DNA of 64,000 nucleotides from the NCBI GenBank assembly GCA_964650255.1, contig CAZYQT010000001.1:39964-103963 (forward strand). The letters run 5' to 3'. Source of the stretch: an uncultured Candidatus Saccharibacteria bacterium (GTDB lineage Bacteria; Patescibacteriota; Doudnabacteria; UBA920). Below the pieces are notes generated by a model, which saw only the letters and a program-made list of their open reading frames with translations, had not been told where the DNA came from and ran no database searches. Positions 6,542 through 21,246 of this stretch are shown here, piece by piece (the stretch's first letter is position 1; each line of letters starts with the position of its first letter). A program made the translations under genes and the position numbers.

Positions 6542-8037
6542 AAATTATTAGTGTTGGCGTAATTTTTAAAATACTCCGGATTTGTTGATCTATACTTATT
6601 AGCTATTGCTTGAAGGGCGCTTTCTCTACCTTTAAACTGCTTGGCCAAATCTGCTCGACTCTTCCACCCCTCTGGGGGCCTTTCATAAGAATTTACTTCT
6701 GCAATAATTTTCGCTACTAAATCAGGATGATAATAGTCATGGGTTTGATTGTTTTTCCCGTAATAATTTTGAATCCACTCTGGATTGTCTGAGGCCAATC
6801 TTTTGGCCATATTCCGGAACCTTTCATGATTCTGAATATCAAGCTGATCAGCTAATTGGGAAACAGTCCTCCACCCCTCCGGAGCATATTTACGGTTTTT
6901 GTGTTGATTAATTAATGTCTTAACTAAATCTGGATGCAAAAATTCTTCCACCCTTTTAATCTTTGGAATCAGATAATCATTAAACCACTCAGGATTATTT
7001 TCGCGATAAGGCTTAACAATTTTTTCTACAGTATGCAGTGCCATCCCTGTTTCTGACTGGATTCCTGTTTTAGTCACCCAACCTTTAGGCGCTTCTTCAA
7101 TTGGTAATAATCTCTCAACTAATTTAGCTACAAAATCAGGATGGAAATACTCAAATGCCCTACTATTGGTAGGATTTTTAAAAGTCTTTATCCAATCATC
7201 TGAAATACCTTCAGCCTTAAACTTCCCAATTAGTTTGCTAACCGTCCAAGAGGTCACTCCTGCCCTATCAGCAATACTAGCCGTAGTGAGCCAATCTGGG
7301 GGAGCAAACTCCAAATTTTGGTTCTCAATTGGTTTTTGCTCTACCGGTTTGACAATTGGTGATTTCAATTGCAGGGCATCCTTAACCATTTCTTTCCATT
7401 GAGGTATATCTCTAAATCTTATCTTCTTAACATTGTTTTCTGGAAAACTGCTTAATTCAGATTTTGTTAAATTGATAAACTCAGAGTATTCCTGACCATC
7501 CTTTAAATAAATAATATATGTAGCATTCTCTGCTTCGTCGTTAACAAATACCGCTTTTCTAATATCAGTTATGTTATAGATATTGTAACCATTCGCTCGA
7601 ACCATATTTGGACTTAACACACCTTCTATAAGCTCATAATCTAAATCTAACTCAGAAAGCAATTCAACCAAAGTGCCATTCCTTGGCCAAAGTGCTTTCT
7701 TTTCGAACCCTGCACCAGCACCAGTTTTAAGCTCGCCCTCTCCCGAAGGTAAAATTACCTTATCAAGCTTAATAACCTTAGATGGTAACTTTAAAAAATT
7801 ACCACTTTCAATTTGGTAATCCATAAAGGCCTTAACATCAAAATGTTTAATTGAATCTCTTTGCTTATTTCTAGAGCCACCAACGCCATAAAAAGCCTCA
7901 GCGCCTAAGGCTTCAACCACATCTTCTAGGGATGTACCATTATCTAACAGCTCTCTTATTTGGGAGCTGACACGTTCTTTGTAGCTAGCCTTACGAGATT
8001 CCTGTGCTAAAAATTCTGAACTCAGGTGTTCTGACAT
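6511..8037 (-). CDS. Repeat protein with four tandem ~60-aa units (xPxGW + helix-turn-helix-like segment + NPEW + (Y/F)(F/Y)HPDLV)
   Basis: Units start at APPDWLTTASIADRAGVTSWTVSKLI, APKGWVTKTGIQSETGMALHTVEKIV, APEGWRTVSQLADQLDIQNHERF and PPEGWKSRADLAKQFKGRESALQAI. Each is followed by NPEW/NPEY and FHPD(L/F)V. No known family recognised. Confidence 0.55.
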   Translation of the reverse strand: MSEHLSSEFLAQESRKASYKERVSSQIRELLDNGTSLEDVVEALGAEAFYGVGGSRNKQRDSIKHFDVKAFMDYQIESGNFLKLPSKVIKLDKVILPSGEGELKTGAGAGFEKKALWPRNGTLVELLSELDLDYELIEGVLSPNMVRANGYNIYNITDIRKAVFVNDEAENATYIIYLKDGQEYSEFINLTKSELSSFPENNVKKIRFRDIPQWKEMVKDALQLKSPIVKPVEQKPIENQNLEFAPPDWLTTASIADRAGVTSWTVSKLIGKFKAEGISDDWIKTFKNPTNSRAFEYFHPDFVAKLVERLLPIEEAPKGWVTKTGIQSETGMALHTVEKIVKPYRENNPEWFNDYLIPKIKRVEEFLHPDLVKTLINQHKNRKYAPEGWRTVSQLADQLDIQNHERFRNMAKRLASDNPEWIQNYYGKNNQTHDYYHPDLVAKIIAEVNSYERPPEGWKSRADLAKQFKGRESALQAIANKYRSTNPEYFKNYANTNNFCQSFLPQLW

Positions 8038-8048
8038 GGCATAGTATG

Positions 8049-9716
8049 TTAAACAAGCGGCAAACTAAAGCTGAAAGTTGAGCCCATATTTTCCCCAGCG
8101 CTTTCAGCCCAAATTTCGCCGCCGTGCGCTTCCACAATCCCCTTACTTACCACCAAACCCAGCCCTGTCCCCTTGCGAGTGGAGTCAAAACTCTTTAATT
8201 GTTTAAATTTAGAAAACAGCACACTCAAGTCTTCGCGACTCACGCCAATCCCAGAATCTTTAATTGTAATAACTGCCCGATTAGCTTTGGTTTCTACACT
8301 TAAATTAATTTCGACTTTGCCGCTATCCGTATATTTAATAGCATTGCTAAGCAAATTATTCATTACCTGCGAAATGCGAACTTTGTCGAAAGATAGCATT
8401 TGTTTTTCTGGACCAATATAGTTCAAAGCCAAGTGTTTGGCCTCTGCTTGCGGTTGATAGGTCTGCAGCTCATCTTTAATGCAGGCTACTATGTCGTTTT
8501 GCTGAGAGTTGATATCAAACTTGCCGGCTTCAATTTTGGCAACATCGAGTAAGTCATTCACCAGTTCCAGCATGTTTGTGGCAGCATCATCAATATGAGC
8601 AATACTCTCTTTTATTTTTGCTGGATCGGTCTGCGCTTTGGCATCGGCTAAACCTTTCATGAGTGACTCGCTAGACCAGCGCACGGCAGTAAGCGGCGCG
8701 CGCAGCTCATGCACCATCATTGCCGTGAATTCCTGGCGGAGCTTTTCCAAAGACTTTTCACTGGTGACATCGTGCAAAATTACCGCCACACCGCGGTGCA
8801 CACCGGTCTTGTCGCGCACTGGGGTTAAGGTAATATCCATCACCTTGTCGTGCAAATATACCTCAGCGATTGTTACGGGCATATTTTTTGCCAAGGCTTC
8901 ATCAATTTTAATGCGCAAATCCACCTTGCCAGCCAAAGCATCCATAATATCAAAGGTGGTCACATTTTTGTTCACTGGCAATTGCAACATGTCCACAACC
9001 GCCGGGTTGGAAATTACCAACTGATACTCCAAATCCACCATAAACACGCCGTCTGTCATTGCCGCAATAATGCCGGAAAGTTTGCCTTTTTCGTTCTCGA
9101 GCACGGCTTGCAGCTGAGATACTGCGAACGCCGCCTGATTAGTAATCGTATAAACTACACCAGCTTGATCTTTGCCAAACTGATTCGGGGTAGATGAGGA
9201 AATGTTAATCATTCCCAGCAGTTGTCCTTCGATAATGACAGGAATATTTAGAAAAGATTCCACGGATGTGCTAAGGCTGTCATCTAAAATTGCACCGCTC
9301 ATGCGTTCATCAATTTTTTCTAAAGACACCTCCTGATTACAAAGCGTGGCAGTAGCGGCTTGCATTTTTTCTTTGACCTGAGAGATGAACGCGTGATTTA
9401 CGCTGTGGTGGACGTGGCATTTAAAAACGATGTTTTTCGGATCAGCATAAAGCATGAACGACACGGTTTCATAATGCAACAAATAACCAATGCTGCCGGT
9501 AACAATTTCAATAATCTTACTAGTGTCGAGCGTGTAACCAAGGCGTTCGTTAATTTCTTGAAGCACCTGAATCTGGTACATGCGTTGCTGAAGCTCTCTG
9601 GACCTAGAACTAACCCCTTCGACTACGGCACGTTCTTGGCTACGTTTGCGAAAATAAAAACCCGCTACCACGCCAAGTAAAAGAAAATCTGCAATGAGTA
9701 AAATTACTATGGTCAT
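8049..9716 (-). CDS. Sensor histidine kinase (N-terminal TM, GAF/PAS-like sensory region, HisKA + HATPase_c)
   Basis: H-box MMVHELRAPLTAV. N-box NLLSNAIKYT. G-boxes DSGIGVS and GTGLGLVVSKGIVEAHGG. N-terminal TM helix. Confidence 0.85.
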   Translation of the reverse strand: MTIVILLIADFLLLGVVAGFYFRKRSQERAVVEGVSSRSRELQQRMYQIQVLQEINERLGYTLDTSKIIEIVTGSIGYLLHYETVSFMLYADPKNIVFKCHVHHSVNHAFISQVKEKMQAATATLCNQEVSLEKIDERMSGAILDDSLSTSVESFLNIPVIIEGQLLGMINISSSTPNQFGKDQAGVVYTITNQAAFAVSQLQAVLENEKGKLSGIIAAMTDGVFMVDLEYQLVISNPAVVDMLQLPVNKNVTTFDIMDALAGKVDLRIKIDEALAKNMPVTIAEVYLHDKVMDITLTPVRDKTGVHRGVAVILHDVTSEKSLEKLRQEFTAMMVHELRAPLTAVRWSSESLMKGLADAKAQTDPAKIKESIAHIDDAATNMLELVNDLLDVAKIEAGKFDINSQQNDIVACIKDELQTYQPQAEAKHLALNYIGPEKQMLSFDKVRISQVMNNLLSNAIKYTDSGKVEINLSVETKANRAVITIKDSGIGVSREDLSVLFSKFKQLKSFDSTRKGTGLGLVVSKGIVEAHGGEIWAESAGENMGSTFSFSLPLV

Positions 9717-10210: not shown

Positions 10211-11560
10211 CTATTTAAACCCCGCCAACCCGCCGCGCATGAATGTGGTTTTGAATTCTTTCATACGGCCAAAGCCTACTGAGTCGCGAATAATGTCGCG
10301 CGCAAGGAATGCGGGCACGCGTGCCACTGTAAAATCATCATACTTTTGATTAATTTTATCCATAGCTTGCATTAGCTGGGAGCGAGTTTTGGCCCGATCT
10401 ACTGTTTCAAACAAATTCCCCTGCGTTACTTCTGGCACAAGGCCAAACACAGTCACGCCAATCAGGTAAGATTGTTTTTCAATTTCTTTAAGCTGTCCGC
10501 TTTGCTTCAGCAAACTCATGGCCTCCATATAAATTTCCCGGCCATCTTGCAGATAATGATCTAACTTTGCGCCTTTGCCCACATGCATGCGCTCAGGATC
10601 ATGCACATGCACGTGCACACCATTACCCATAACGCCATTTACGCGAAGACGAGCACCAACCATTTCCGACAACTTGTACAGCACAGAGCGCATTACATTT
10701 TGCTGGCGATACTCCTGCGGAATTGTATACATATGACCAATTGATTTCATAGTGCCGTCTGCGGCATCAGTTTGCTCAAACTCTTCTTTCCAGCTACCTT
10801 CGAGCTGGCCCATGCTGTGCAAATGATACCCTTGAATCCCGTAATGGGCTACAAGTTTACTCAAAGGATAATCACGCAAATCTTTAAGCGTACGAATGCC
10901 TAAGGTGCCAAGGTTGCGCTTCATACGGCGGCCAATACCAGGAATATCTTCTAGGTCGAGACGATAATACAACGCGTCCTTATCTTGCGGCCGCACCACA
11001 ACTAAGCCATCCGGTTTTTGTAGGTCTGATGCAATCTTCGCCACTAACTTGCTATAACTAACACCAGCACTACAGCGAATCCAGTCCCCGACTTCGGTCT
11101 TCATGCGGTACTTAATTTCCTGCACAATCTTCACTGCCTCAAACCACGGATCAGTTGGTACCCACTCACCAGCAGAATTCTTCTCACGGATGTTGCACGC
11201 TTTAGTTAAATCCAAAAAGGCTTCATCAATACTATACTTTTCCACCTTGTCTGTATAATCCTCAAACACTTTTAAAAACCGAGCCGTGTAATAACGATAG
11301 CGCTCCGGATGAGTTTTAGTAAGATGAATCTTCGGGTACAACTTGCGCGCCTCCCAAACTGGAGTACCAGTTTTAATGCCCCATCGTTTCGCCTCAACAC
11401 TAGCGGCAATAATGATGCCGCCCAAATGTTCGCACACCCCCACAGGCTCACCACGCCAAGCTGGGTTATCTTGCTGCTCAACCGTAGCAAAATAACTGTT
11501 CATATCGATGTGGGCTATAACAGGTGTTTGAGCTGATTCAATTGGATAATCTCTAGACAT
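10211..11560 (-). CDS. dinB: DNA polymerase IV (Y-family, DinB)
   Basis: IAHIDMNSYFATVEQQDNPAWRGEPVGV and SIDEAFLDLT are Y-family catalytic motifs. Start placed at the internal ATG (MSRDYP...) near 11560. The ORF-track start at 11611 is probably too long. Confidence 0.9.
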   Translation of the reverse strand: MSRDYPIESAQTPVIAHIDMNSYFATVEQQDNPAWRGEPVGVCEHLGGIIIAASVEAKRWGIKTGTPVWEARKLYPKIHLTKTHPERYRYYTARFLKVFEDYTDKVEKYSIDEAFLDLTKACNIREKNSAGEWVPTDPWFEAVKIVQEIKYRMKTEVGDWIRCSAGVSYSKLVAKIASDLQKPDGLVVVRPQDKDALYYRLDLEDIPGIGRRMKRNLGTLGIRTLKDLRDYPLSKLVAHYGIQGYHLHSMGQLEGSWKEEFEQTDAADGTMKSIGHMYTIPQEYRQQNVMRSVLYKLSEMVGARLRVNGVMGNGVHVHVHDPERMHVGKGAKLDHYLQDGREIYMEAMSLLKQSGQLKEIEKQSYLIGVTVFGLVPEVTQGNLFETVDRAKTRSQLMQAMDKINQKYDDFTVARVPAFLARDIIRDSVGFGRMKEFKTTFMRGGLAGFK

Positions 11561-11603
11561 TAAAGTGATAATTTGGCTTATTTTAATGATTATTTTACTA
11601 TAC

Positions 11604-11632
11604 TTGACCAATTTATAATATTATGATATAAT
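11604..11632 (+). promoter_or_regulatory. Sigma70-like promoter for avd: TTGACC (-35), 17-nt spacer, TATAAT (-10). GGAGGA RBS follows at ~11655
   Basis: ttgaccaatttataatattatgatataat lies upstream of the ATG at 11671 in the divergent dinB/avd intergenic region. Confidence 0.5.
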
Positions 11633-11670
11633 GTTAAAGTTCGAATAAAAAACTGGAGGAATTTTGTACA

Positions 11671-12159
11671 ATGTTTAGAACATGTTGCGCGCATCACGCC
11701 AATGTAGACGCTCAGGACGAGCAAATGCAGATGGACGAAATGCAAAGAGTTGATTGGCTGATTGAAAACGGCCACGTCAGCTATCACCCCCCCCCGACTC
11801 GGAATTTAACTCAACCTCCTTTATTTCACGCATTGTATCAATTGTATTGTTCATGGTATATTCGCTGTCAGACTCTGCCCAAAAAAGACCGCTTTGCTAT
11901 TGGACATAGAATTGAAAATTTATTACTAGATATGATCGTGAGTGTAACAGGTGCCTATCATACTAAAGATGTTTCTCGGAAAAAAGAACTTCTGTCCGAT
12001 GCTAACCTTACTTTGGAATCGCTTAAGGTAGTAATGAGACTGGCTAAGGATGTGCACGCTTTAGAAAAGCGCTGGTATATTAAATACGAAGCTCAGTTTC
12101 AAGAAATTGGTAAAATGCTAGGAGGCTGGATATCCAGCCTTACAAAAACAAACAGATAA
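11671..12159 (+). CDS. avd: DGR accessory variability determinant (Avd)-like four-helix-bundle protein (the family also annotated as 23S rRNA intervening-sequence protein)
   Basis: The C-terminal 110 aa align by eye with Bordetella phage BPP-1 Avd. LPKKDRFAIGHRIENLLLDMIVSVTGA corresponds to IPRKHGVAREMFLKCLLGQVELFIVAG. EIGKMLGGWISSL corresponds to EVGRILGSWIARV. The gene lies 35 nt upstream of a DGR template repeat. Confidence 0.75.
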   Translation: MFRTCCAHHANVDAQDEQMQMDEMQRVDWLIENGHVSYHPPPTRNLTQPPLFHALYQLYCSWYIRCQTLPKKDRFAIGHRIENLLLDMIVSVTGAYHTKDVSRKKELLSDANLTLESLKVVMRLAKDVHALEKRWYIKYEAQFQEIGKMLGGWISSLTKTNR

Positions 12160-12176: not shown

Positions 12177-12193
12177 AATATAAGAGTGACTTC

Positions 12194-12309
12194 GGACTGA
12201 CACCACGCCGATATCGTCGTTCGAATTCCTCGGATTCCACCTGTTGACATTGGCACCCTTGTCATCGGCCTTACCGAAATTCACAAGCTTGCCATCAGAA
12301 GTGCGAGAA
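12194..12309 (-). repeat. DGR template repeat (TR), 116 nt, intergenic, sense on the minus strand
   Basis: Direct repeat of 12607..12722 with 19 mismatches. 18 of these fall on positions that are A in this copy (coding/minus sense) and G, T or C in the other copy. Only 1 of the other 88 positions differs. This copy is rich in AAT/AAC/AAG codons in the target frame. Confidence 0.75.
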
Positions 12310-12525: not shown

Positions 12526-12547
12526 CGAGCTCCCTGACGGGAGCTCG
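12526..12547 (-). other. GC-rich hairpin CGAGCTCCC-TGAC-GGGAGCTCG about 55 nt downstream of the VR/target stop. Candidate DGR cruciform or target-gene terminator
   Basis: A perfect 9-bp stem with a 4-nt loop, followed in minus sense by a T-rich tract (GTTTTATTTAT). Confidence 0.5.
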
Positions 12548-12601: not shown

Positions 12602-14686
12602 CTAACGGACTGACACCACGCCGAGACCGTCGCTCGAAAGCCCCGGATCCCACCTGTCGACACTGGCACCCCTGTCACCGGCCCCACCGAAAAACACAAG
12701 CAAGCCAAAAGAAGTGCGAGAATTAGTCCAATCATACATAGTTTCCAGCATTCGTTCATCGCTATTTTTATATCTAATAGCAAAATCATACAAAGCTTCT
12801 GCTGCATTTCTACGGTGATTCTGGTTAATTTTTAATTCAGCTAAAGCTTTTGAAGCGGCTTGCCAGTCTTTATCCATAAGCTTTCTAATTTCCGTTAACT
12901 TCTCGTCAGTTACCTCTTTAGCTTCTGCTTCGCTTAAAGAATCTACTGTTTTTAAATAATCTCGTAGTACTGCTGTCTGTTGTATATAATCTTTTGAGGT
13001 TGAATTATCAATTACTTCCTGACTTACCAAAGCCCAACCTTCTCTAACAGGTTGCTTTTTAAAGAAATCTTCACCCTCATACCAATCTGTATCATATAGT
13101 GGCTTACCGTCTTTGTCTTTAAAAACTTCCTCTAATCTTTTATTTATATTTTCCATACTTGAGCTTCCTGATATTGCATATCTGAGAACCAGCATTTCGC
13201 CTTTTGCTTTTGCTCGCTCAAGCTCCGCATTACTATAAGGGACGGTACTAAATTCTGCACTCAAACTACGTTTAGTTAAGAAGGCCTCATTAAAGGCCTC
13301 AACACCGTAAAAATTCTCAGCCATAATTTCTTGAGCTTTTTCATAAGTAGTCGCACCTTTTTCGATCCTCTCAATCCTTTCGGAAGAAGATTCCTTTTCG
13401 AAAGTATCTATTACATCCGAAAAGTCGGTGTTCTCAGCCTCATTAATTTCTTCAGCAAGGCTCTTTCTTTTTGATTCTTCTGTTCGAGGTCTATACTCAA
13501 CTGTTCTGATGATTTCTGAAAGTTTATCTTTGTCTACTTTGCTTTCTAACTTATTTGCATAATAGTATTGCAACGCTTGCTGAAAGGTTTCGTTTATATC
13601 ACCGTTATAGAATTTCAAAATGAAATCCCGAACACGGCGAGGTTCCATACGATCATCATAAGTAAACGGCTGGGGCTGATCTTCAGCGATTTGTCGATTC
13701 TTAAGAAGCTCTTTAGCTGTTTTATGGAACTCTTCATACTTAGCCAAAATTTCTGGCAAACCCGGAATATCCTCAAGCTGTTCTGGAGTAAGAGCAGTAT
13801 CTCGAGAGTTTAAGTAATCTTTTTGTGGTACTTCTTGAGATTCCTTATCAATACCAAATAATGACTTAGTTGAATGTGAAAAAGTACTACTTGGAAGCTC
13901 TGAAGCCGCTTTTTTATAGACCCAACGACGTAACTGAGCAGGATCCATTGGCTCACGACCAATATATCCTTTCCCGGGTGGGTTCATTAAAGCGACAATT
14001 TTAGTACGCTCTTTATTTACTGACACTTCCTCGGAAGCATCTTCGGAAAGAACAACCTCCCCACCACGTTCAAGGGCATCTAATACTTCGTGCAAACGAA
14101 TAGCAATATTAGGCGCAGCAGCATTGTACTCATCTAAAATAATAACCTTAACTTTCCCCTTTTCCTGTCTTAGGCCAGATGTAACTTTACCGTCTGCAAA
14201 AATATATTCCGGGTCTTCTTCGCCTCGTTTATGAGGATTAGGAATATACCGCCCCATTAAATCTTCTACGTCCGTAGCACCATTTAAGTTTATGTAATGA
14301 ACTTCATAGCCAAGCTCACTTGCCATTTTTCTAACAGTAGTTGTTTTACCGATTGAAGTACCACCCTCAATAAGAATAGGTTCACCGTTTAAAAATGCTA
14401 CTGCTAAATCTCTTTGCATAGGCAAAGATAGTTCAGTGTCATTTATAAAGTCTTCATATTGTTCTCTCTTAGGAACATAGGCGCTTCCTTTAACTGTAGC
14501 TTTTTCTAAATTTACACCTAAATACGAAACCGAGGTTTCGGTTTCCTTAACTGGCTTTTGGTCTTCTAAGACCTCAGAGGTTTCAACCTTAGTCTCTGGC
14601 TCTAGCCCCTCTCCCATTTCTTCAGGAGTCAAAGCATTAAATTTTGTTTCAGATGATCCTGGCATAGATTTACACTTGGTATGCAA
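12602..14686 (-). CDS. DGR target protein: MoxR-like AAA+ ATPase (AAA_5-type) with a long C-terminal extension ending in the variable CLec-like region
   Basis: Walker A GGTSIGKTT and Walker B VIILDEYNAA lie in the N-terminal third. The C-terminus carries the VR, with a YDWTNS...VVSVR pattern reminiscent of DUF1566/FGE-type DGR variable regions. No signal peptide. An internal ATG (MPGSS, ~14665) may be the true start. Confidence 0.75.
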   Translation of the reverse strand: MHTKCKSMPGSSETKFNALTPEEMGEGLEPETKVETSEVLEDQKPVKETETSVSYLGVNLEKATVKGSAYVPKREQYEDFINDTELSLPMQRDLAVAFLNGEPILIEGGTSIGKTTTVRKMASELGYEVHYINLNGATDVEDLMGRYIPNPHKRGEEDPEYIFADGKVTSGLRQEKGKVKVIILDEYNAAAPNIAIRLHEVLDALERGGEVVLSEDASEEVSVNKERTKIVALMNPPGKGYIGREPMDPAQLRRWVYKKAASELPSSTFSHSTKSLFGIDKESQEVPQKDYLNSRDTALTPEQLEDIPGLPEILAKYEEFHKTAKELLKNRQIAEDQPQPFTYDDRMEPRRVRDFILKFYNGDINETFQQALQYYYANKLESKVDKDKLSEIIRTVEYRPRTEESKRKSLAEEINEAENTDFSDVIDTFEKESSSERIERIEKGATTYEKAQEIMAENFYGVEAFNEAFLTKRSLSAEFSTVPYSNAELERAKAKGEMLVLRYAISGSSSMENINKRLEEVFKDKDGKPLYDTDWYEGEDFFKKQPVREGWALVSQEVIDNSTSKDYIQQTAVLRDYLKTVDSLSEAEAKEVTDEKLTEIRKLMDKDWQAASKALAELKINQNHRRNAAEALYDFAIRYKNSDERMLETMYDWTNSRTSFGLLVFFGGAGDRGASVDRWDPGLSSDGLGVVSVR
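12607..12722 (-). repeat. DGR variable repeat (VR) forming the last ~39 codons of the target gene
   Basis: Counterpart of the TR, with substitutions only at TR-adenine sites (10 A>G, 6 A>T, 2 A>C) plus 1 G>T. The two copies end together in a GC-rich stretch GGCGTGGTGTCAGTCC (IMH-like) right at the stop codon. It encodes ...YDWTNSRTSFGLLVFFGGAGDRGASVDRWDPGLSSDGLGVVSVR*. Confidence 0.75.
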
Positions 14687-15086
14687 CTCCCGTATTCATA
14701 CGGATACTGTATCCTTGATTTTCCAATACTAAAAGATTTCGTTTTGTTATTAAAGCTATGACTGATAAATTCCTGTAGTCTGGAATAGCGATTTGGGATT
14801 GCATTTGAGTATGATCAAAAATTTCCACTTGCCCTGTGGGATATTGCATTAGAAAATCATACACATTTTTATTGATTGTACCGCTGAAAGTAAATAACAA
14901 TTTACCTGGCTTATCCATTCTATTTAACAACTCTGAAGTTCTATCTACTTTAATGAAGCCGACTTTCTTTAAAGATTGTTGTAGCTCTTGCACCTGGGTT
15001 TCATCTTCAGCGATGATTAAACCCACTTCCTTTTGACCAGAAGCTATACTCAAAAATTTCTTTAATTCGTCTCTTGTTTGTTCCAT
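14670..15086 (-). CDS. Hypothetical protein (138 aa) between the VWA and AAA+ genes
   Basis: ORF overlapping the upstream and downstream genes by a few nt (operon-like). No confident motif. Confidence 0.4.
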   Translation of the reverse strand: MEQTRDELKKFLSIASGQKEVGLIIAEDETQVQELQQSLKKVGFIKVDRTSELLNRMDKPGKLLFTFSGTINKNVYDFLMQYPTGQVEIFDHTQMQSQIAIPDYRNLSVIALITKRNLLVLENQGYSIRMNTGVAYQV

Positions 15087-15103
15087 AATATGCTTTAAAT
15101 ATA

Positions 15104-17296
15104 CTAAAATTTGTTGTAATTAGCAATTACCTCTTCAATTAAACCAGCCAATTTCCCAGCCATTTCCTCAATATTTACATTGGCCAGACTGTTTGGGTAA
15201 TACTTAGAAACATGTCCAGTACCAGAACCAATCCCCAAGCCAATTAACTTTTGATCGGTTTCCTCTATTACCTTTTTTATCATTCCTTTTAAGGGATACT
15301 GAGAACTTGGATGCTTAGACGATTCAACCGGCTCACCGTCAGACAAAACAATTAGAAACTTTTGATCCACTTTTTGTTTAGCCAAACGCTCTGAAGTTTG
15401 TTCTATAGCCCAACCATCGTCATTGTATGCAGCACCTCGACCCCGTACCTCGCTTAATATTTGTCCCATATTCTCTCGAATTTCTTTCGAGATAGGTTGT
15501 CCAAAATTCTGGTATTCATATATCTTGTCGTTGAATCCTAAAACTTCCAAATTTATTGATAAGCGATTCAAAACTTCAGTTAGTACAATCACTGCTTTGA
15601 AAGTTTCTTCTATTTTTTCACCTGCCATAGAACCTGAAAGATCAACTAATAAAGAAATAGCATAATCTTTTTCTTGAGGGAGTTCCCGTTTTTGCCAAGC
15701 CCGACTTTCCATGGCCGGTACGTCTTTGGCTTTTTCCTGAATACGGCGTTTAATGTCTATACGTTTGCCAGATTTGTGTCCGCCTTCCCAACCGCGCGCA
15801 CGACGCGCCACAAAGATGTCGCGCAAATCTTGCTCGAGTTTGTCTATAATAGGTAAAACTTCCCGTCTATACTGTTCATATATATTGGCATCTTTTTCCA
15901 TTTCCTTTGCCAACATGTCGCGATATTTTTGAATTTCAGATTCATCTATTTCATGACTTTTCCTTTTCTCTGACTTTGGAACGGTTTCTAATTCATTTAC
16001 AGGTTCAAATTCACTAGATTCTTTTTTGCCGCTTTTCCGTTCCTCAGCTTTTTTAGGATTATCCGATAGCTTCCCTTGAAGCTCTTCATTTAGCTCTTTT
16101 TCAAACTGATCCAAGGCAGCCTGAGCTCGCTCCGCAAGTTCCTGCTTTTGAGCTTCCGGCATTGATTCAATATACTCCTTAATTTTCTGCTTTAATTCTT
16201 CTGACAATGAATCGAGGTTAATTGGAGCGCCCTTTGATTTCTCGGATTCACTTGAGGATTCGCCATGCTCTTTCTGTTCTCCTTCAGTGCTTTCTTGGCC
16301 TTGTTGTTCTTGATTCTTTTGCTGCTGCTTTTTAATAGCTTCCTCAATAGCCTCTTCTAATTGTTGTTGTTGTTCAGGAGTCAATTTATCTTTCAACTCT
16401 TGAGGCAAACCCTGGCCAGAGCCACCCTCTCCTTTGCCCTGAGCATCTTTCATCATTTCCTGCATTTGCTGATCCTTCATATCCTCTTCGATCAACTTTT
16501 TGAAATCAGGCCAAACTCTATCACGGTTAATTTCGTAACTCTTTTTAGCGTATTGAGTGATTAATTCTTCACTGCTGTCGGCTTCCTGGCGAGACGGATA
16601 TCGCCACCAAGAATCTTGAGCCGCAGTCAAAGTTTTATTGACCACTTCTTTAACATCGTCTGGTAAATCTTCGCTTAATTCAAATTCTTCGCCCTTAGTT
16701 TCCTTAAACCACTGCTTGATATATTCAAAACCGGCCTGCATAAAACGAGGCTTATAACCCAGCTCATCGGTAGCAGTATTTTTTGCTTTTGCCTCAAAAT
16801 CTAAATCTTGCTCATAGGCGATCCCCATTTGCTCCTTAAACTTTGGATAGCTTTCAGCCACAAAATTATTATCCCGTGGGTCTTCAATGGCATTCATCAT
16901 AAAAGCAAACCCGGGTTCTTGCCATTGCTCGAGAGGAATAAAATCTGCTCTTGAAATTCTTCTATGACCCCCTTCATGTGAAATAACAAACCGCAAATAA
17001 TCCATAGGTTTGTCCAGCAAGTCCTGTGGGTCTATCTTAATAATATTTTTCTCAAAATCCCAATGCCAACCTTCACCTGGCTCATTGAGTTTTACCGGAA
17101 TCCGAAAATCCTTGCCAATAAAATAAGCAAGGGAAGATAGGATTTGCTGTTTGTATTTTATTTCAGACTGTTGTTCTGGAGTAAAGCTAGATAAAATCTT
17201 TTGCTCTTTATTCTCTCTTATAGCTTTATAATTAGGTCTAGCTTCTACCACCATACTAGCCCGGCCTATATCTGAAGTGCTTTCAAAATTCTTCAT
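15104..17296 (-). CDS. VWA-domain protein with an N-terminal HExxH metallopeptidase-like domain (DUF2201-type MoxR partner)
   Basis: SHEGGH (HExxH) near the N-terminus. Long K/E-rich low-complexity coiled region. C-terminal VWA with MIDAS DLSGSM. Genomic pairing with a MoxR-like AAA+ ATPase. Confidence 0.7.
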   Translation of the reverse strand: MKNFESTSDIGRASMVVEARPNYKAIRENKEQKILSSFTPEQQSEIKYKQQILSSLAYFIGKDFRIPVKLNEPGEGWHWDFEKNIIKIDPQDLLDKPMDYLRFVISHEGGHRRISRADFIPLEQWQEPGFAFMMNAIEDPRDNNFVAESYPKFKEQMGIAYEQDLDFEAKAKNTATDELGYKPRFMQAGFEYIKQWFKETKGEEFELSEDLPDDVKEVVNKTLTAAQDSWWRYPSRQEADSSEELITQYAKKSYEINRDRVWPDFKKLIEEDMKDQQMQEMMKDAQGKGEGGSGQGLPQELKDKLTPEQQQQLEEAIEEAIKKQQQKNQEQQGQESTEGEQKEHGESSSESEKSKGAPINLDSLSEELKQKIKEYIESMPEAQKQELAERAQAALDQFEKELNEELQGKLSDNPKKAEERKSGKKESSEFEPVNELETVPKSEKRKSHEIDESEIQKYRDMLAKEMEKDANIYEQYRREVLPIIDKLEQDLRDIFVARRARGWEGGHKSGKRIDIKRRIQEKAKDVPAMESRAWQKRELPQEKDYAISLLVDLSGSMAGEKIEETFKAVIVLTEVLNRLSINLEVLGFNDKIYEYQNFGQPISKEIRENMGQILSEVRGRGAAYNDDGWAIEQTSERLAKQKVDQKFLIVLSDGEPVESSKHPSSQYPLKGMIKKVIEETDQKLIGLGIGSGTGHVSKYYPNSLANVNIEEMAGKLAGLIEEVIANYNKF

Positions 17297-17386
17297 AGAA
17301 ATACTAAAATATTCTATAACTTAACTAAATTATGCCACAAATTGCTATGTTTTTCAAACAAAACACAAACTTGATATACTGACTAT

Positions 17387-17596
17387 ATGGGAATATTTGT
17401 GATTATTATGCTTGTTTACTTCCTAGCTGGAATTTTAATGGCATTATGGGACTTTAGAAAGATTCTATTTAAAAACCCGGGCAATCAAACTGCCAGCAGT
17501 CTTTTCATTGAACCACCAAAATTTTTAGATAACCTCTCTATCAGTACAGCGTTAACATTCATCCTAATTTGGCCAGTTAAATTATTGCTCAAATAG
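17387..17596 (+). CDS. Small membrane protein (hypothetical)
   Basis: 69 aa, two hydrophobic helices. First ORF of the AT-rich plus-strand block. Confidence 0.3.
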   Translation: MGIFVIIMLVYFLAGILMALWDFRKILFKNPGNQTASSLFIEPPKFLDNLSISTALTFILIWPVKLLLK

Positions 17597-17647
17597 CCAG
17601 AAAGAATTTCTCTTTTAAATAAAAGGTAAAGTAAGTATAATTGTTAT

Positions 17648-18076
17648 ATGAAATATATTTTCCTCGCTATTGCCACAATAGCCTTACTGGGAGCTAGTTG
17701 TAATTCTAGCACCAAACAAACTAGTGATTCCTTTGAGCGCAATTTAAAGTGCAAAGAAATTGCCACCCAGTTAGATCAGCAAAAAAGAGAAGATGAACAA
17801 AAATCAAAAGATGCAAAGCTTCTCGTTTTCACCTCTTTTGATAGCAGCGAAACTAAATATAGTGAGAAGTTGAATACATGTCTATATTCCTACACTCTAA
17901 ATATGTACGGAACAGGTGGGGTGCCAAATTCTCAAAGCAGATATCTGATTGATAGCTTAACCAACGAGGTATTGGCTCAATATACTACATCTGACGCGCA
18001 ATCTACCCAAGAAAGAACTGACGCACAAAAAGCATTCTATGATAAATACAGCGAACTATATTTAGGAACTAAATAA
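17648..18076 (+). CDS. Putative lipoprotein
   Basis: Signal peptide plus lipobox LLGASC. 142 aa, AT-rich codon usage. Confidence 0.5.
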   Translation: MKYIFLAIATIALLGASCNSSTKQTSDSFERNLKCKEIATQLDQQKREDEQKSKDAKLLVFTSFDSSETKYSEKLNTCLYSYTLNMYGTGGVPNSQSRYLIDSLTNEVLAQYTTSDAQSTQERTDAQKAFYDKYSELYLGTK

Positions 18077-18083
18077 AATCAAA

Positions 18084-18785
18084 ATGCTATTTAAAAACTT
18101 CTTTCGTAAAGATTTAAACTTAAAGAATCGGTGGTGGCATCGGTTACTACTCGTACTTTTCTTCGTTTCATTCGCTGTCAGCTTATTGTATGCAACATTT
18201 CACACTGGACAACCAGACAGATATCGCCAGGTTAGTAGTCTGAAAGATAGGATGACTAATAATTTAACAAAAATTGGAGATTTAGTTAAACCAGGAGAAA
18301 GAATCGGTGAAAACGAGAATAGAATCAATGATGATCTCTACTATAAAAACGGAGGCTTTTTACTAAGTCAAAATATTTATTGTGCAAAGAATGTTACAAA
18401 CCATGTTGATGACTTTGCCAAGTCTAATGGAGCATCACATTTTAAAGGCAATGATGCTATTATTATGGCTAGTTCACAAGTATCATCCGATGAGTTCAAA
18501 CACTACCTTACTTCAGAATCAGGTAACTGTATAGAAATTGCCAATCTGAGTGATTACGAAAATAAGAACATAATATGGTCTGGAATAGACAAGGTTGTGG
18601 AAAGGTCTGTATTCACAAACTCTATGGATGTATGGACACTAGACCATACGAAAACAAACCTTAATAGGATATTTAATCCCGCCTATCTTGGGATATTAAT
18701 ATTATTTGGAATTATTATGATTCTATACTACAAAGTATTGCTATATATAATTTTCGGTAATAATAAACAATATGAAAATAAATAA
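18084..18785 (+). CDS. Membrane protein with N- and C-terminal TM helices (hypothetical)
   Basis: 233 aa. 8-nt gap to the upstream gene. Confidence 0.45.
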   Translation: MLFKNFFRKDLNLKNRWWHRLLLVLFFVSFAVSLLYATFHTGQPDRYRQVSSLKDRMTNNLTKIGDLVKPGERIGENENRINDDLYYKNGGFLLSQNIYCAKNVTNHVDDFAKSNGASHFKGNDAIIMASSQVSSDEFKHYLTSESGNCIEIANLSDYENKNIIWSGIDKVVERSVFTNSMDVWTLDHTKTNLNRIFNPAYLGILILFGIIMILYYKVLLYIIFGNNKQYENK

Positions 18786-19008
18786 AGATAGAATAATTAT
18801 TATAGTTTTAATACTCTTACTAATTTGGTTCGCCACTGCCATTATTAGATTAGAAAATTATCATTATGCCGTTCAGGTAGGAATGTGTGAAAATACTACT
18901 GAAATTGAACCATTTAAACAGCGTATGGAATTAGAGGATTGCTTAAATCATACCCAAACTAGAACGAGTCCCATCTGGCACTTATTCTATGGGTTGAGAA
19001 TATTTTAA
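18772..19008 (+). CDS. Small membrane protein (hypothetical)
   Basis: 78 aa with an N-terminal TM. Overlaps the upstream gene by 14 nt. Confidence 0.35.
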   Translation: MKINKDRIIIIVLILLLIWFATAIIRLENYHYAVQVGMCENTTEIEPFKQRMELEDCLNHTQTRTSPIWHLFYGLRIF

Positions 19009-19012
19009 ATTT

Positions 19013-19459
19013 ATGTGGTTTTTGTATGTAGTTGGTGTTGTTATAATCATCAGTATCATTCAATGGTTAATTAACAAACGCCGAGAAAAGATTAGAGAAC
19101 AAGTTGCTCACGATCTATTCGATAAATCAGACACAGAAACAATACTAGAAAATTACAAAAATAAACTTTCTGCAATCCTAATTACAACACCAAGAGAAAT
19201 TCCTAAGAGGATATCTTCTTGGGAACTAGCTCGCCTACCTAAATATGCTGCTAAAATAGCTGGGTCTGATTGTCCAAAATGTGAAAGCGGTTATTTAAAA
19301 GTAATATATACATACAACGGTTATGGTAGATTGCCATCCGTGTTTAGTTGCAGTAGTAAAGAATGTAATTATATTATTGGTTTAAAACAAGCCAAAGTGG
19401 AATATGAAAAAAATAACATCAATTCTTTTGCAAAAGATTTCAACCAAGTTTATCCATAA
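19013..19459 (+). CDS. TM-anchored protein with a C4 zinc-ribbon-like motif (CPKC...CSSKEC)
   Basis: 148 aa, N-terminal TM. Cys pairs are spaced as in zinc ribbons. Confidence 0.4.
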   Translation: MWFLYVVGVVIIISIIQWLINKRREKIREQVAHDLFDKSDTETILENYKNKLSAILITTPREIPKRISSWELARLPKYAAKIAGSDCPKCESGYLKVIYTYNGYGRLPSVFSCSSKECNYIIGLKQAKVEYEKNNINSFAKDFNQVYP

Positions 19460-20584
19460 ATGAGCTACTATAATAAAATTAAACTGGAGCTAACAAATCT
19501 GATAGGCTCTTTTAATTCGGCTAATAAACAGCTAGACGACAAATTGGTACTTCTCAAGCAAGAAGAAGACTCACTACAGAGAGAGAAAGATAAATATAAC
19601 CAGATAAAAAAGGAGGTGTTGCAGTTAGCTTTAGAAAGACAGAGGGGCTTTCCTACCTTAGCTAAAGCCTATGATGAATATTTTGCCTTACAAGATAAAT
19701 CTCTCATAGATTTTCTTAGATACAAGGATAGGCCAGCTCCAAGCGCTAGTGACATTGTAAAGGAGTATTCTAGAATAAAGAGAGAAGCTTTGAAAGACAA
19801 GAAAATCTTTCAATATTTGATTGAATACTACGAATCAATTTGCCCATTTCTTATTGAGTTAAAAGAAGAGGAATTATCTGATATAACTGAAGAAGATAAA
19901 CAATATCTGGTTGAGTATTCTGAAGAGGAGCTGGAAGATGAGGTTACAAAATACCTAACCAAAGAAGAATATAGGAAATTACCTACTGCCCAGAGAAACC
20001 AGCAAGCATTGGATAGATATTGGAAAAGGCCCAAATCTAAATGGCATATAGGGAAAATATACGAACGTTATGTAGGGTACTTATTTGAACAGCAAGGATA
20101 TCAAGTAGATTATTTTGGAATATTTAAAGGCTTGGAAGATTTAGGTAGAGATATCATAGCAACTAACAAGAATGAGATTGTCATTATTCAATGTAAAAAT
20201 TGGTCACAATTTAGGACAATATACGAAAAACATATTTTCCAATTTTTTGGCACTGTGTTCCAATATCGTGACGAGAATCCAAATAAAAAAGTTAGGGCTA
20301 TTTTTTATACCACTACCCAACTTTCTGATTTAGCGAGAAGATTTAGCAAAGAGCTAGGCATAGAATTACAAGAACAATTCAAATTCGATAAAAACTACCC
20401 TAGCATTAAATGTAATATCAACAAGCTAACTAAAGAAAAAATATACCACTTGCCTTTCGACCAAAAATACGACCACACTAAAATAACTCCAAAAACAGGA
20501 GAGCTATATGTTGCAACTGTAAAAGAAGCAGAGGATGCAGGTTTCAGAAGAGCTTTCCGTTGGAAAGGAGAATCGAATAAATAA
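19460..20584 (+). CDS. Mrr-like restriction endonuclease (PD-(D/E)xK, Mrr_cat) domain protein with an N-terminal coiled coil
   Basis: IGKIYERYVGYLFEQQGYQVDY...GRDIIATNKNEIVIIQCKNW matches the Mrr catalytic-domain pattern (G..E...LF...G+.V....G.D+.....+...IQCK.W). Confidence 0.6.
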   Translation: MSYYNKIKLELTNLIGSFNSANKQLDDKLVLLKQEEDSLQREKDKYNQIKKEVLQLALERQRGFPTLAKAYDEYFALQDKSLIDFLRYKDRPAPSASDIVKEYSRIKREALKDKKIFQYLIEYYESICPFLIELKEEELSDITEEDKQYLVEYSEEELEDEVTKYLTKEEYRKLPTAQRNQQALDRYWKRPKSKWHIGKIYERYVGYLFEQQGYQVDYFGIFKGLEDLGRDIIATNKNEIVIIQCKNWSQFRTIYEKHIFQFFGTVFQYRDENPNKKVRAIFYTTTQLSDLARRFSKELGIELQEQFKFDKNYPSIKCNINKLTKEKIYHLPFDQKYDHTKITPKTGELYVATVKEAEDAGFRRAFRWKGESNK

Positions 20585-20592
20585 TAATCTAT

Positions 20593-21246
20593 ATGACAAA
20601 CTTAGACGAATCCAATATTGATACTGACTACCCTGAGTCAGTTAAAAAAATAATTGAGGAAATAAACAAGCATAGGATAAAAGCTTTTGAAAAAACTCTT
20701 CCTGAAGGACTAACCTATGAAGATGTTAAGAGTGAGCTCGTAGAAACGTTGAAAGTGTATCATACCTGGCTAGACCATTGCTTCAAATACATTTTTGATA
20801 GTGAGAAGGTAATCGGACAACAGGTCAAAGAGATTAAATCAAAATTTGAGCAAAATGTACTTGAAGAGTTATTTAATAAGGAGCTTACAATTATACGGTG
20901 TGCTTTTGTCTATGCCTGGCTACAAAACTTTGAATTGACAGATTACGGAAAGAAAAATAATCAAGATACTTTTAAGTCACTATATAATCATTATAATCAT
21001 TCGTTAGAAAATATACTTAAATTAAATGGTAGACTAGAGGATAAAAATTGGATATTAGAAGGGCTTAATAAGTACACTTCCCCTACTAAATTTAGTCATG
21101 ACGATTTTATTGAAAAGGCTGCGGAAGGAGTAGCTAGAATCCCTTTTGAAAGCACAGAAGGCCGGCTCGGAGGTGGGCTTTATGATGGACTAACGCTCCT
21201 GATACAAAATACAATACAAAATGATAAGACCACCTTACTTGAATAA
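20593..21246 (+). CDS. Hypothetical protein (217 aa), last gene of the AT-rich plus-strand block
   Basis: ORF contiguous with the Mrr-like gene (9-nt gap). No recognisable motif. Confidence 0.4.
   Translation: MTNLDESNIDTDYPESVKKIIEEINKHRIKAFEKTLPEGLTYEDVKSELVETLKVYHTWLDHCFKYIFDSEKVIGQQVKEIKSKFEQNVLEELFNKELTIIRCAFVYAWLQNFELTDYGKKNNQDTFKSLYNHYNHSLENILKLNGRLEDKNWILEGLNKYTSPTKFSHDDFIEKAAEGVARIPFESTEGRLGGGLYDGLTLLIQNTIQNDKTTLLE

Follow-up and report, generated by a model that had tools for sequence, protein, structure and literature searches.

[quoted passage not shown] The CPR 'UVR4' targets, with their 'B3' cassette architecture, match the AAA domain of midasin, while the fold around VR was left unclassified (Wu et al. 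2018, PMC5758913). DGR-diversified cytoplasmic NTPase and vWA-MoxR systems have also been published (PMC7159879, PMC10907252), therefore a non-secreted DGR target is not surprising in itself. The vWA-MoxR (VMAP/iSTAND) ternary conflict systems of cyanobacteria and Thiohalocapsa (Kaur et al. 2020, PMC7159879; Dore et al. 2024, PMC10907252) are predicted to be cytoplasmic, contain trypsin- or caspase-like peptidases and a large VMAP protein as the third component, and use a DGR to rewrite a TvpA-related FGE/CLec domain on the vWA component. The reported RT lineages are different, with CPR clade 2 in CPR DGRs versus clade 5 in vWA-MoxR systems (PMC10907252, PMC8144416). A mechanistic template is provided by NorQ/NorD-type pairs, in which a finger of the VWA protein occupies the hexamer pore while the ATPase remodels the linker (PMC13036017).

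Positions 12602-17296 of the window (the whole 64 kb stretch of DNA that was analysed) hold one operon of three genes on the minus strand: gene 1, encoding the 730-aa VWA partner (15104..17296), gene 2 (138 aa, 14670..15086) and gene 3, the DGR target (12602..14665), separated by gaps of 17 and 4 nt. We number gene 3 from the ATG at 14665 (687 aa), the start chosen by gene callers for a 100% identical protein (P0001, 687 aa), rather than from the TTG at 14686 (694 aa). On the upstream side of the operon, a sigma-70-like promoter candidate (17329..17357, minus strand; TTGAAA-17-CATAAT) is proposed purely on its consensus match, with 10/12 matching positions and a TG extension. A GC-rich hairpin with a 9-bp stem, 4-nt loop and T-rich tail, 55 nt past the gene 3 stop codon (12526..12547, minus strand), is likely the operon terminator, or alternatively may be the DGR target-site hairpin. 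Judged by its sequence, the locus is a member of the published CPR AAA-CLec family: it comes from the same phylum, its target has an AAA_5/midasin-like N-terminal half and a C-terminal VR, and its relatives share the cassette order of target, TR, reversed avd and RT. The unusual architecture claimed in the preliminary description is thus not supported, since the AAA-CLec fusion is the commonest one among CPR targets in the account of Paul 2017 cited in PMC10907252, and midasin-like UVR4 targets had been described (PMC5758913). This copy differs from the family in the loss of its RT.

The N-terminal MoxR-like AAA+ ATPase proposed previously for gene 3 is confirmed by Pfam AAA_5 (residues 104-254, 13925..14377, E 2.9e-12). 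Walker A (GGTSIGKTT, aa 101-109, 14339-14365), Walker B (VIILDEYNAA, aa 174-183, 14117-14146), sensor-1 (ALMNPPG, 13973-13993) and the QLRRW motif (13922-13942), all on the minus strand, are invariant or nearly so across 33 homologues. Against solved structures the family profile matches midasin (1e-28), CobS (1.6e-3) and NorQ (3e-3), so that the sequence places this ATPase in the AAA_5 group of MoxR/CobS/NorQ/midasin type. ATPase and VR are encoded in a single uninterrupted ORF, and as the same fusion is found in more than 100 full-length homologue clusters (50-86% identity), it is not a frameshift artefact, in line with the original reading of one protein. The last 258 aa (12605..13378, minus strand) are modelled confidently as a C-type-lectin/FGE fold with TvpA as the top match, which bears out the CLec-type variable domain suggested before and gives a nearest relative to the fold that was unclassified in Wu 2018. 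Identity to TvpA (Treponema denticola variable protein, 2y3c) and to other CLec-fold DGR variable proteins (Mtd, TaqVP, Lcl-type DUF1566) is 11-15%, and the gene 3 module differs from them by a long helical insert (model residues ~131-206). The tip also exists by itself as a second target and is carried by other AAA_5 proteins, in 856 clusters altogether, always in the C-terminal position.

Gene 1 consists of a gluzincin-like domain (aa ~25-280), a charged E/K/Q-rich linker (aa ~270-480; E+D+K+Q = 51%) and a VWA/MIDAS domain (aa ~547-724). Its Pfam matches (CobT_C, 6e-16; VWA, 1.6e-6) and PDB sequence matches (CobT, 1.4e-17; midasin MIDAS, 4e-10; NorD, 7e-6) agree with the VWA/MIDAS partner expected from the preliminary description. 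The MIDAS motif DLSGS (DxSxS; aa 552-556, 15629..15643, minus strand) has an invariant D552 and S556, with S554 conserved to at least 90%. The HExxH motif, also pointed out earlier, is HEGGH (aa 107-111, 16964..16978, minus strand), with H107, E108 and H111 invariant or at least 90% conserved in 27 orthologues; E138 within IEDPR (16874-16888, minus strand), invariant in the same orthologues, is a candidate third zinc ligand. The AF2 model of the N-domain (pLDDT 83) has exclusively gluzincins among its top 16 Foldseek matches. No Pfam family was matched by this domain in any of the 27 orthologues, so the suggestion of DUF2201_N is not supported. For the 138-aa gene 2 product, searches of Pfam and of PDB sequences gave no match; its alignment contains the motif YDF..QYPTGQVEIFD. 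In contrast to the vWA-MoxR systems, the third component here is therefore a 138-aa protein without a match instead of VMAP, and the peptidase-like domain is gluzincin-like and N-terminal to VWA.

None of the three proteins contains a 19-residue window with a mean Kyte-Doolittle hydropathy above 1.4 or a hydrophobic N-terminus, and so the earlier statement that the target has no signal peptide or TM segment agrees with hydropathy, the measure used here. Because there are no TM- or signal-like segments and the ATPase needs cytosolic ATP, the sequences suggest that the trio is cytoplasmic. Could the lectin tip nevertheless be exported by an unrecognised route, to act as a surface or secreted adhesin that binds host-cell surfaces? 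This general idea has been offered for the DGRs of episymbiotic CPR bacteria, an attachment role is assumed in CPR reviews (PMC10221324), characterised DGR targets are mostly surface or secreted binders and TvpA itself is a surface lipoprotein. However, TvpA-type proteins have a surface anchor or belong to a phage fibre, whereas the gene 3 tip is covalently joined to an ATPase with conserved catalytic motifs, dependent on cytosolic ATP, and neither the target nor its two obligate partners have a signal peptide, lipobox or TM segment. Since an absence of membrane signals was already noted for CPR clade-2 targets (Roux 2021, PMC8144416), we consider an adhesin quite improbable.

Gene 3 has at least 427 homologue clusters, and the 69 genomic loci that we recovered, all from Patescibacteria-type MAGs, contain the trio wherever upstream sequence exists: gene 1 is present in every such locus and gene 2 separates the VWA gene from the AAA gene in almost all of them. 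A DGR is found in 32 of the 44 informative loci, with an adenine-specific TR 250-460 nt past the stop codon, followed by reversed avd and then an RT with LGNLTSQ/YSDD motifs. We compared natural variation in clusters of at least 90% identity by counting the columns that hold at least three residue types, for the last 45 aa and for the remainder of the protein separately. These numbered 14 versus 0 (P0021), 16 versus 4 (P0068) and 9 versus 2 (P0040), so hypervariation in DGR-linked relatives is confined to the lectin tip, while in the DGR-less cluster P0057 the tail is static across 12 members. As the trio exists without a DGR in the remaining 12/44 loci, hypervariation is dispensable for the module. 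The commonest neighbours of the trio were serine recombinases and HEPN proteins, in a census that had no background control and in which neighbours are mostly housekeeping genes. The cassette of one related locus (L003) is flanked by type I R-M genes, and an Mrr-like nuclease lies near the operon in the window.

What would the trio do? One answer is a housekeeping MoxR-VWA maturation chaperone, which serves a single dedicated client complex by inserting a metal or by assembling it, with the lectin as the client-docking domain. NorQ/NorD, CobS/CobT and midasin are the best matches of genes 1 and 3 among solved structures and share with gene 1 the charged linker followed by a MIDAS domain, PHROGs labels the two proteins as CobS-like and CobT-like, and the trio with its static tail persists where the DGR is missing. 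However, unlike the operon, none of these relatives has a lectin domain, DGR or HExxH domain, and the scores are far below family cutoffs (35.7 bits versus 759 for the CobT equivalog). Client genes such as CobN or NOR are not found nearby, nor is any client gene conserved beside the trio, as flanks vary between loci. A fixed client would also leave unexplained why the binding face is a target of hypervariation in 32/44 loci, and a recognition repertoire accounts more readily than one client for lectin modules that stand alone or are duplicated. We therefore regard the chaperone role as unlikely.

The window itself contains both repeats, each 117 nt long: VR (12606..12722, minus strand), which makes up the final 39 codons of gene 3, and TR (12193..12309, minus strand), from which 14 of these codons differ. 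Of 28 TR adenines 18 are substituted in VR, and only one of the 19 mismatches, G>T, falls elsewhere (chance of at least 18/19 on adenines, 1e-10). Within the window, the conserved 3' end of the repeat is found at these two sites only, against 0 expected. The avd ORF (11671..12159, plus strand, opposite to the operon) is identified by Pfam bAvd (6.9e-16) and NCBIfam DivGenRetAVD (5e-19). Its relatives align to aa 40-162, and because this homology begins near 11788 the first ~40 codons are probably outside the gene. The homology shared with intact DGR loci breaks off at 11783..11787, which corresponds to the RT start codon. Against L003, a 921-nt stretch of 86% nucleotide identity stops at window 11783 (L003 9275), with the L003 RT starting at 9271. 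No RT was found in the window (tblastn with the RTs of two relatives, best E 0.4) or in ~10 kb of adjoining sequence around its left end. This comparison indicates that this copy lost its RT gene through a deletion with its boundary exactly at the start codon. The earlier designation as a DGR target consequently stands as far as the VR/TR relation goes but not for a working local DGR, and the tip is probably no longer rewritten, that is, a fixed allele.

Whether TR and avd are decaying leftovers, so that any function of the protein would rely on a single fixed tip, appears to us evenly poised. The clean removal of RT, its absence from the window and adjoining sequence, the non-adenine mismatch (1/19) and the static tails of DGR-less relatives argue for such a relic. 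On the other hand, TR, avd and the three operon ORFs are all intact, and TR is 86% identical to that of a relative and free of extra damage. The contig is only 114.6 kb of a larger genome and CPR genomes often have several DGRs (PMC10907252), so an RT from a second one may act in trans. The question concerns current activity and is compatible with a sensor role of the family, hence our estimate does not exclude other readings. Directly after avd, where relatives have RT, lies dinB (11611..10211), and this placement might suggest that DinB, a Y-family polymerase, took over as the mutagenic polymerase of the element. We disfavour this as extremely improbable, since DinB is beside the cassette in 0/69 related loci, the sudden loss of homology at the RT start is what a deletion or rearrangement would give, and DinB has an ordinary Pol IV score (243 bits); dinB of the window is unrelated to the DGR.

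Starting from the observed domain identities, TR/VR relation and conservation of the trio, we propose by analogy, as a moderately probable reading, that this three-gene cytoplasmic module of Patescibacteria acts in a conflict-type system, as its sensor or as an adaptor for substrates, a role that PMC10907252 had put forward for CPR AAA-CLec targets. The ATPase would form a hexamer that docks onto and remodels the VWA protein, as in NorQ/NorD (PMC13036017) and CobS/CobT. The ring would then carry six hypervariable lectin tips binding a changing cytoplasmic ligand, most plausibly proteins of phages or other invaders, and ATP hydrolysis would couple recognition to the metallopeptidase-like domain that is tethered to VWA. 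The system is not recognised by PADLOC, which gives only weak ATPase-level matches (mad8, 4.7e-5) and nothing for the partners. In the literature on CPR AAA-CLec targets, with Paul 2017 represented by its citation in PMC10907252, we found no mention of the VWA-zincin partner or of the 138-aa gene. The conserved trio with a zincin-VWA partner thus goes beyond the published accounts that we found, as does the placement of the lectin tip on the ATPase, whereas the vWA-MoxR conflict systems published so far have it on the VWA protein.

The repeat diversified by the DGR in the window lies in a protein that joins a MoxR-like ATPase to a lectin-like tip, encoded by the last of three genes that look like one operon (12602-17296). 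The genes, all on the minus strand, encode the VWA partner of 730 aa (17296..15104), a small protein of 138 aa (15086..14670) and the target of 687 aa, counted from its ATG (14665..12602). Public gene calls use this start (cluster P0001, 100% identical), and with an in-frame TTG (14686) as start the protein would be 694 aa long. We regard the three as an operon because the ORFs are consecutive and separated by gaps of only 17 and 4 nt, with a promoter-like site ahead of the VWA gene (17357-17329) and, 55 nt past the target stop, a GC-rich hairpin (stem 9 bp, loop 4 nt) that ends in a T-rich tail (12547-12526, minus strand). This hairpin probably terminates the operon; DGR target sites, too, make use of a hairpin 3' of the variable repeat (VR), and it may serve both roles. 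The core observation of the preliminary description, a VR-bearing AAA_5 protein in an operon with a VWA partner, is thus confirmed, and the ATPase and VR-bearing parts belong to one gene rather than to two. Divergent from the operon, on the plus strand, lies a block (17387-21246) that encodes an Mrr-type restriction endonuclease (19460-20584, about 2 kb from the operon), a 217-aa unknown protein and several small proteins that resemble TM proteins or lipoproteins and match no Pfam family. GC drops there to 0.33-0.36 and the GC skew flips sign, which suggests an inserted island.

In the target, Pfam AAA_5 matches residues 104-254 (E 2.9e-12). Walker A (GGTSIGKTT) and Walker B (VIILDEYNAA), both quoted in the preliminary description, are accompanied by sensor-1 (ALMNPPG) and QLRRW motifs; all four are invariant or nearly so in 33 homologues, and the arginine residues are intact. 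About 400 N-terminal residues are strongly conserved, followed by a variable linker and then by the C-terminal region. Compared with solved structures, the family profile matches the midasin AAA domain (E 1e-28), CobS (1.6e-3) and NorQ (3e-3), and in PHROGs the target matches a phage CobS-like family. Given these matches, and since Pfam AAA_3, the MoxR-proper model, does not match the target, the protein is MoxR-like only in the broad sense, as a member of the AAA_5 branch. Assignment to CobS/CobT proper failed, with 35.7 bits for the TIGR01651 CobT equivalog against a cutoff of 759, and PADLOC did not recognise the system, returning weak ATPase matches only.

With that qualification, the proposed pairing of a MoxR-like ATPase with a VWA protein stands. 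The C-terminus of the partner is a VWA domain (Pfam CobT_C 6e-16, VWA 1.6e-6) in which the DxSxS signature of the MIDAS site is conserved as DLSGS (aa 552-556), and the linker ahead of it consists to 51% of E, D, K and Q. A profile of 27 orthologues matches the solved chains of CobT (1.4e-17) and NorD (7e-6), as well as the C-terminal MIDAS of midasin, with 4e-10 for the isolated domain and 1e-7 for the MIDAS together with its linker within the full-length chain. The suggested DUF2201_N was not recovered, as the N-terminal ~280 aa match no Pfam family in any of the 27 orthologues (E ≤ 0.05). Within this region H107-E108-x-x-H111 and E138 are conserved, and in an AF2 model (pLDDT 83) the HExxH motif lies on one helix and E138 on the helix that follows. 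The domain is predicted to be zincin-like, with a candidate gluzincin fold. A search with this domain brought back mainly truncated orthologues and no distant relatives. The 138-aa protein is also conserved, with the motif YDF..QYPTGQVEIFD, and gave no Pfam match in 25 orthologues (E ≤ 0.1) and no match among PDB sequences, PHROGs or PADLOC. No hydrophobic segment resembling a TM helix or a signal peptide occurs in any of the three proteins (top 19-residue hydropathy 1.09, 0.76 and 1.40), in agreement with what had been said of the target, and the trio therefore looks cytoplasmic by sequence.

What is the fold around the VR? The Pfam DUF1566 and FGE-sulfatase HMMs, named earlier as candidates, match neither target nor partner, and the fold of the tip becomes visible only by structure prediction. 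The last 258 residues of the target (12605-13378), modelled from an alignment of 101 homologues, gave a mean pLDDT of 94.8 and a pTM of 0.92. The model confidently places the VR within a C-terminal CLec/FGE-type fold nearest to TvpA, in line with the variable tip anticipated in the preliminary description. Scores against other structures were 8.4 for CarF, 7.9 for both PvdO and the C-terminal (DUF1566-type) domain of Legionella Lcl, 7.4 for an FGE paralogue, about 7 for EgtB and OvoA, 6.8 for Mtd, 5.5 for TaqVP and about 5 for dozens of classical C-type lectins. In the model, the residues changed in the VR fall on the final strands and on the C-terminal loop. The tip is a module in its own right. 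In a full HMMER scan of 1.84 billion representatives it turned up in 856 clusters, at or near the C-terminus in all 150 matches listed. Among the best 149 matches, 97 proteins are 260-449 aa long and 40 are longer, and AAA_5 was found on seven of ten long ones tested. Stand-alone tips also serve as second DGR targets, either just downstream of the ATPase gene, ~300 to 1250 nt past its stop (loci L010, L012, L023, L025, L026, L033 and L048 of the relatives), or between the VWA and small genes (L031, L032, L037, L068 and L074), and one relative has two tandem full-length ATPase-lectin paralogues (L007, 10001-14712). The window has neither a stand-alone lectin copy nor a tandem paralogue.

The VR (12722-12606) and the template repeat (TR, 12309-12193) form a pair of direct repeats, each of 117 nt, on the minus strand. 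They differ at 19 of 117 positions, 18 of which are TR adenines (chance P = 1e-10); 18 of the 28 TR adenines are thus substituted, 14 codons are changed, and the sole exception is a G>T mismatch turning GAT into TTT. The accessory gene avd is present on the opposite, plus strand (11671..12159; bAvd 6.9e-16), and its match to DivGenRetAVD (5e-19, 68.5 bits) is under NCBI's 80-bit cutoff. The designation as a DGR target is therefore borne out by the adenine-biased repeats and avd, but not by a cognate reverse transcriptase (RT), which is absent from the window. Neither a scan for YxDD/GNxxSQ motifs nor tblastn with the RTs of two relatives (best E 0.4) revealed one in the 64 kb. The ~10 kb at the left end of the window (L076, which overlaps its first ~2 kb) hold cell-wall and housekeeping genes only and no RT. 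At the right end, where the edge is inside a SecY/ribosomal-protein operon, a 2.9 kb ribosomal/SecY contig likewise carries only housekeeping genes.

Comparison with L003, an intact relative, shows where the element was interrupted. The two are 86% identical over 921 nt, a stretch reaching from the VR past the TR and across avd, and homology ends at position 11783, corresponding to L003 9275, while the L003 RT starts at 9271. Because homology stops there, we conclude that the RT was lost by a deletion or rearrangement beginning at its start codon. A dinB gene follows the position of the RT start, on the same strand as the lost RT and next to avd (within 10211-11787), which raises the possibility that DinB substitutes for the missing enzyme. 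It is, however, an ordinary Pol IV (243 bits), its linkage to the cassette is seen in none of 69 related loci, and the break in homology at the RT start is sharp. DinB was rejected as a substitute and, since the arrangement is seen nowhere else among the loci examined, the adjacency is taken as coincidental. The avd ORF (162 aa) continues for ~40 codons past the Avd-homologous region into the rearranged sequence (11671-11787), and at 11604-11632 the plus strand carries a strong promoter-like site (TTGACC-17-TATAAT with TG). Expression of avd may now depend on foreign sequence. Two genes past dinB there is a GAF-PAS-HisKA-HATPase sensor histidine kinase (8049-9716), which is unlinked to the cassette in other loci. 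In another relative, L004, the RT position (7377-8476) is occupied by two short ORFs, of 181 and 155 aa, that match no Pfam family, and tblastn aligns RT residues 129-311 only. This RT looks split or degraded; RT decay beside an intact target would then have occurred a second time, independently.

The family of the target is large, with at least 427 clusters of homologues; the best 120 of these are full-length, 50-86% identical and labelled by source as Patescibacteria or as 'MoxR-like ATPase'. A scan of one genome per species gave 69 loci, essentially all in CPR MAGs (a few taxon labels look like binning errors), and in every locus with sequence upstream of the ATPase, tblastn places the VWA and small genes immediately before it. 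In 44 informative loci the ATPase gene is intact and followed by at least 2.5 kb of sequence. An adenine-specific TR is present in 32 of them, mostly 250-460 nt past the stop codon and with 13/13 to 23/24 mismatches at adenines, and is followed by a reversed avd and then a forward RT with LGNLTSQ/YSDD motifs. The remaining 12 of 44 have the trio, but neither a TR nor avd nor an RT lies within 10 kb of it; loci of this kind are L015, L016, L019, L035, L042, L046, L061, L062, L065, L067, L071, L072 and L073. Among 150 flanking ORFs, taken up to 3.5 kb from the cassette (L002-L047, raw counts), large serine recombinases (4-6) and HEPN_LA2681 (4) are commonest, with HEPN_Cthe2314 (2), DNA methylases, HNH and TraG, which hints that the cassette often resides in mobile or defence-type regions. 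Type I R-M genes flank the L003 cassette.

Natural variation follows the presence of the DGR. We counted alignment columns with at least three residue types in the last 45 residues and in the rest of the protein, within clusters of ≥90% identity, and obtained 14 versus 0 for cluster P0021, 16 versus 4 for P0068, 9 versus 2 for P0040 and 13 versus 20 for P0019. In contrast, P0057, which corresponds to the DGR-less L015/L016, has a static tail, with zero such columns in 12 full-length members from many contigs. The restriction of variation to the lectin tip in DGR-linked relatives is evidence that the DGR acts on this target family in nature. The window's own allele is a single sequence (P0001, one member); with P0057 as the natural control, this RT-less allele is therefore predicted to be static.

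Taken together, the preliminary interpretation was partly supported: the domains and the fold stood, while DUF2201_N did not, and the architecture can hardly be called unusual, because the ATPase-lectin fusion is already in the literature (Wu 2018, PMC5758913), being reported as the commonest DGR target architecture in CPR (Paul 2017, as cited in PMC10907252). Wu et al. described 'UVR4' targets with a midasin-like domain, leaving the VR fold unclassified, and a 'B3' architecture in 90% of CPR DGRs (PMC5758913), which fits the order target, TR, reversed avd, RT of our relatives. CPR clade-2 targets were noted to lack membrane signals, with their genuinely non-membrane status left open (Roux 2021, PMC8144416). 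Analogous DGR-diversified vWA-MoxR systems are known (Kaur et al., PMC7159879). However, in these VMAP systems (Kaur 2020) the third protein is large and begins with a peptidase, cyclase or adaptor domain, and the FGE/CLec domain is on the vWA component, whereas in the trio the third protein has 138 aa and no match, and it is the ATPase that bears the variable domain, the vWA protein having an N-terminal zincin-like domain instead. Relative to the cited literature, what appears new is the confident, model-based CLec/FGE assignment nearest to TvpA, the invariant zincin-VWA partner with a third small gene, the variable domain on the ATPase unlike in VMAP systems, the DGR-plus and DGR-minus trios with matching hypervariable and static tails, and the precise RT deletion in the window, although Paul 2017 may already report some of these. 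The locus adds no new kind of element, and the main practical message for the window is that its DGR is incomplete.

How could such a trio work? We infer a mechanism with moderate confidence, by analogy with NorQ/NorD, where a hexameric ATPase holds the VWA finger in its pore and remodels the linker of its partner (PMC13036017). By this analogy the ATPase ring would show six variable lectin tips, and ligand binding would be coupled by ATP hydrolysis to the VWA-tethered zincin-like domain. Since an intracellular binder here diversifies rapidly, its target would be a changing one, e.g. phage or mobile-element proteins. The gene neighbourhoods, with the R-M genes around L003 and the Mrr-type nuclease in the window, agree with this only weakly. 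The same mode of action was already suggested for CPR AAA-CLec targets (Dore et al., PMC10907252). A more specific version, which we offer as a speculation that is rather unlikely to hold as a whole, is that the trio would be a DGR-programmable, ATP-driven recognition-and-processing machine, in which the hypervariable lectin tips of a hexameric AAA_5 ring serve as substrate receptors, and the ring passes the cytoplasmic (invader) proteins so bound to a VWA-tethered gluzincin protease, or activates this protease.

CPR DGR targets are numerous, and the analysis gives a concrete picture of the commonest one: a cytoplasmic MoxR-like ATPase that bears a confidently modelled, TvpA-like lectin tip, always with a zincin-VWA partner and a small protein. 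Some trios have a DGR and others lack one, with hypervariable and static tails, and these natural controls make the system well suited to experiment. CPR bacteria rarely carry CRISPR. If the specific version were true, the placement of the variable domain, on the ATPase and not on the vWA subunit, would mark a distinct branch of NTPase conflict systems, and the trio would be an antibody-like adaptive sensor/effector, which could help to explain how CPR bacteria cope with phages.
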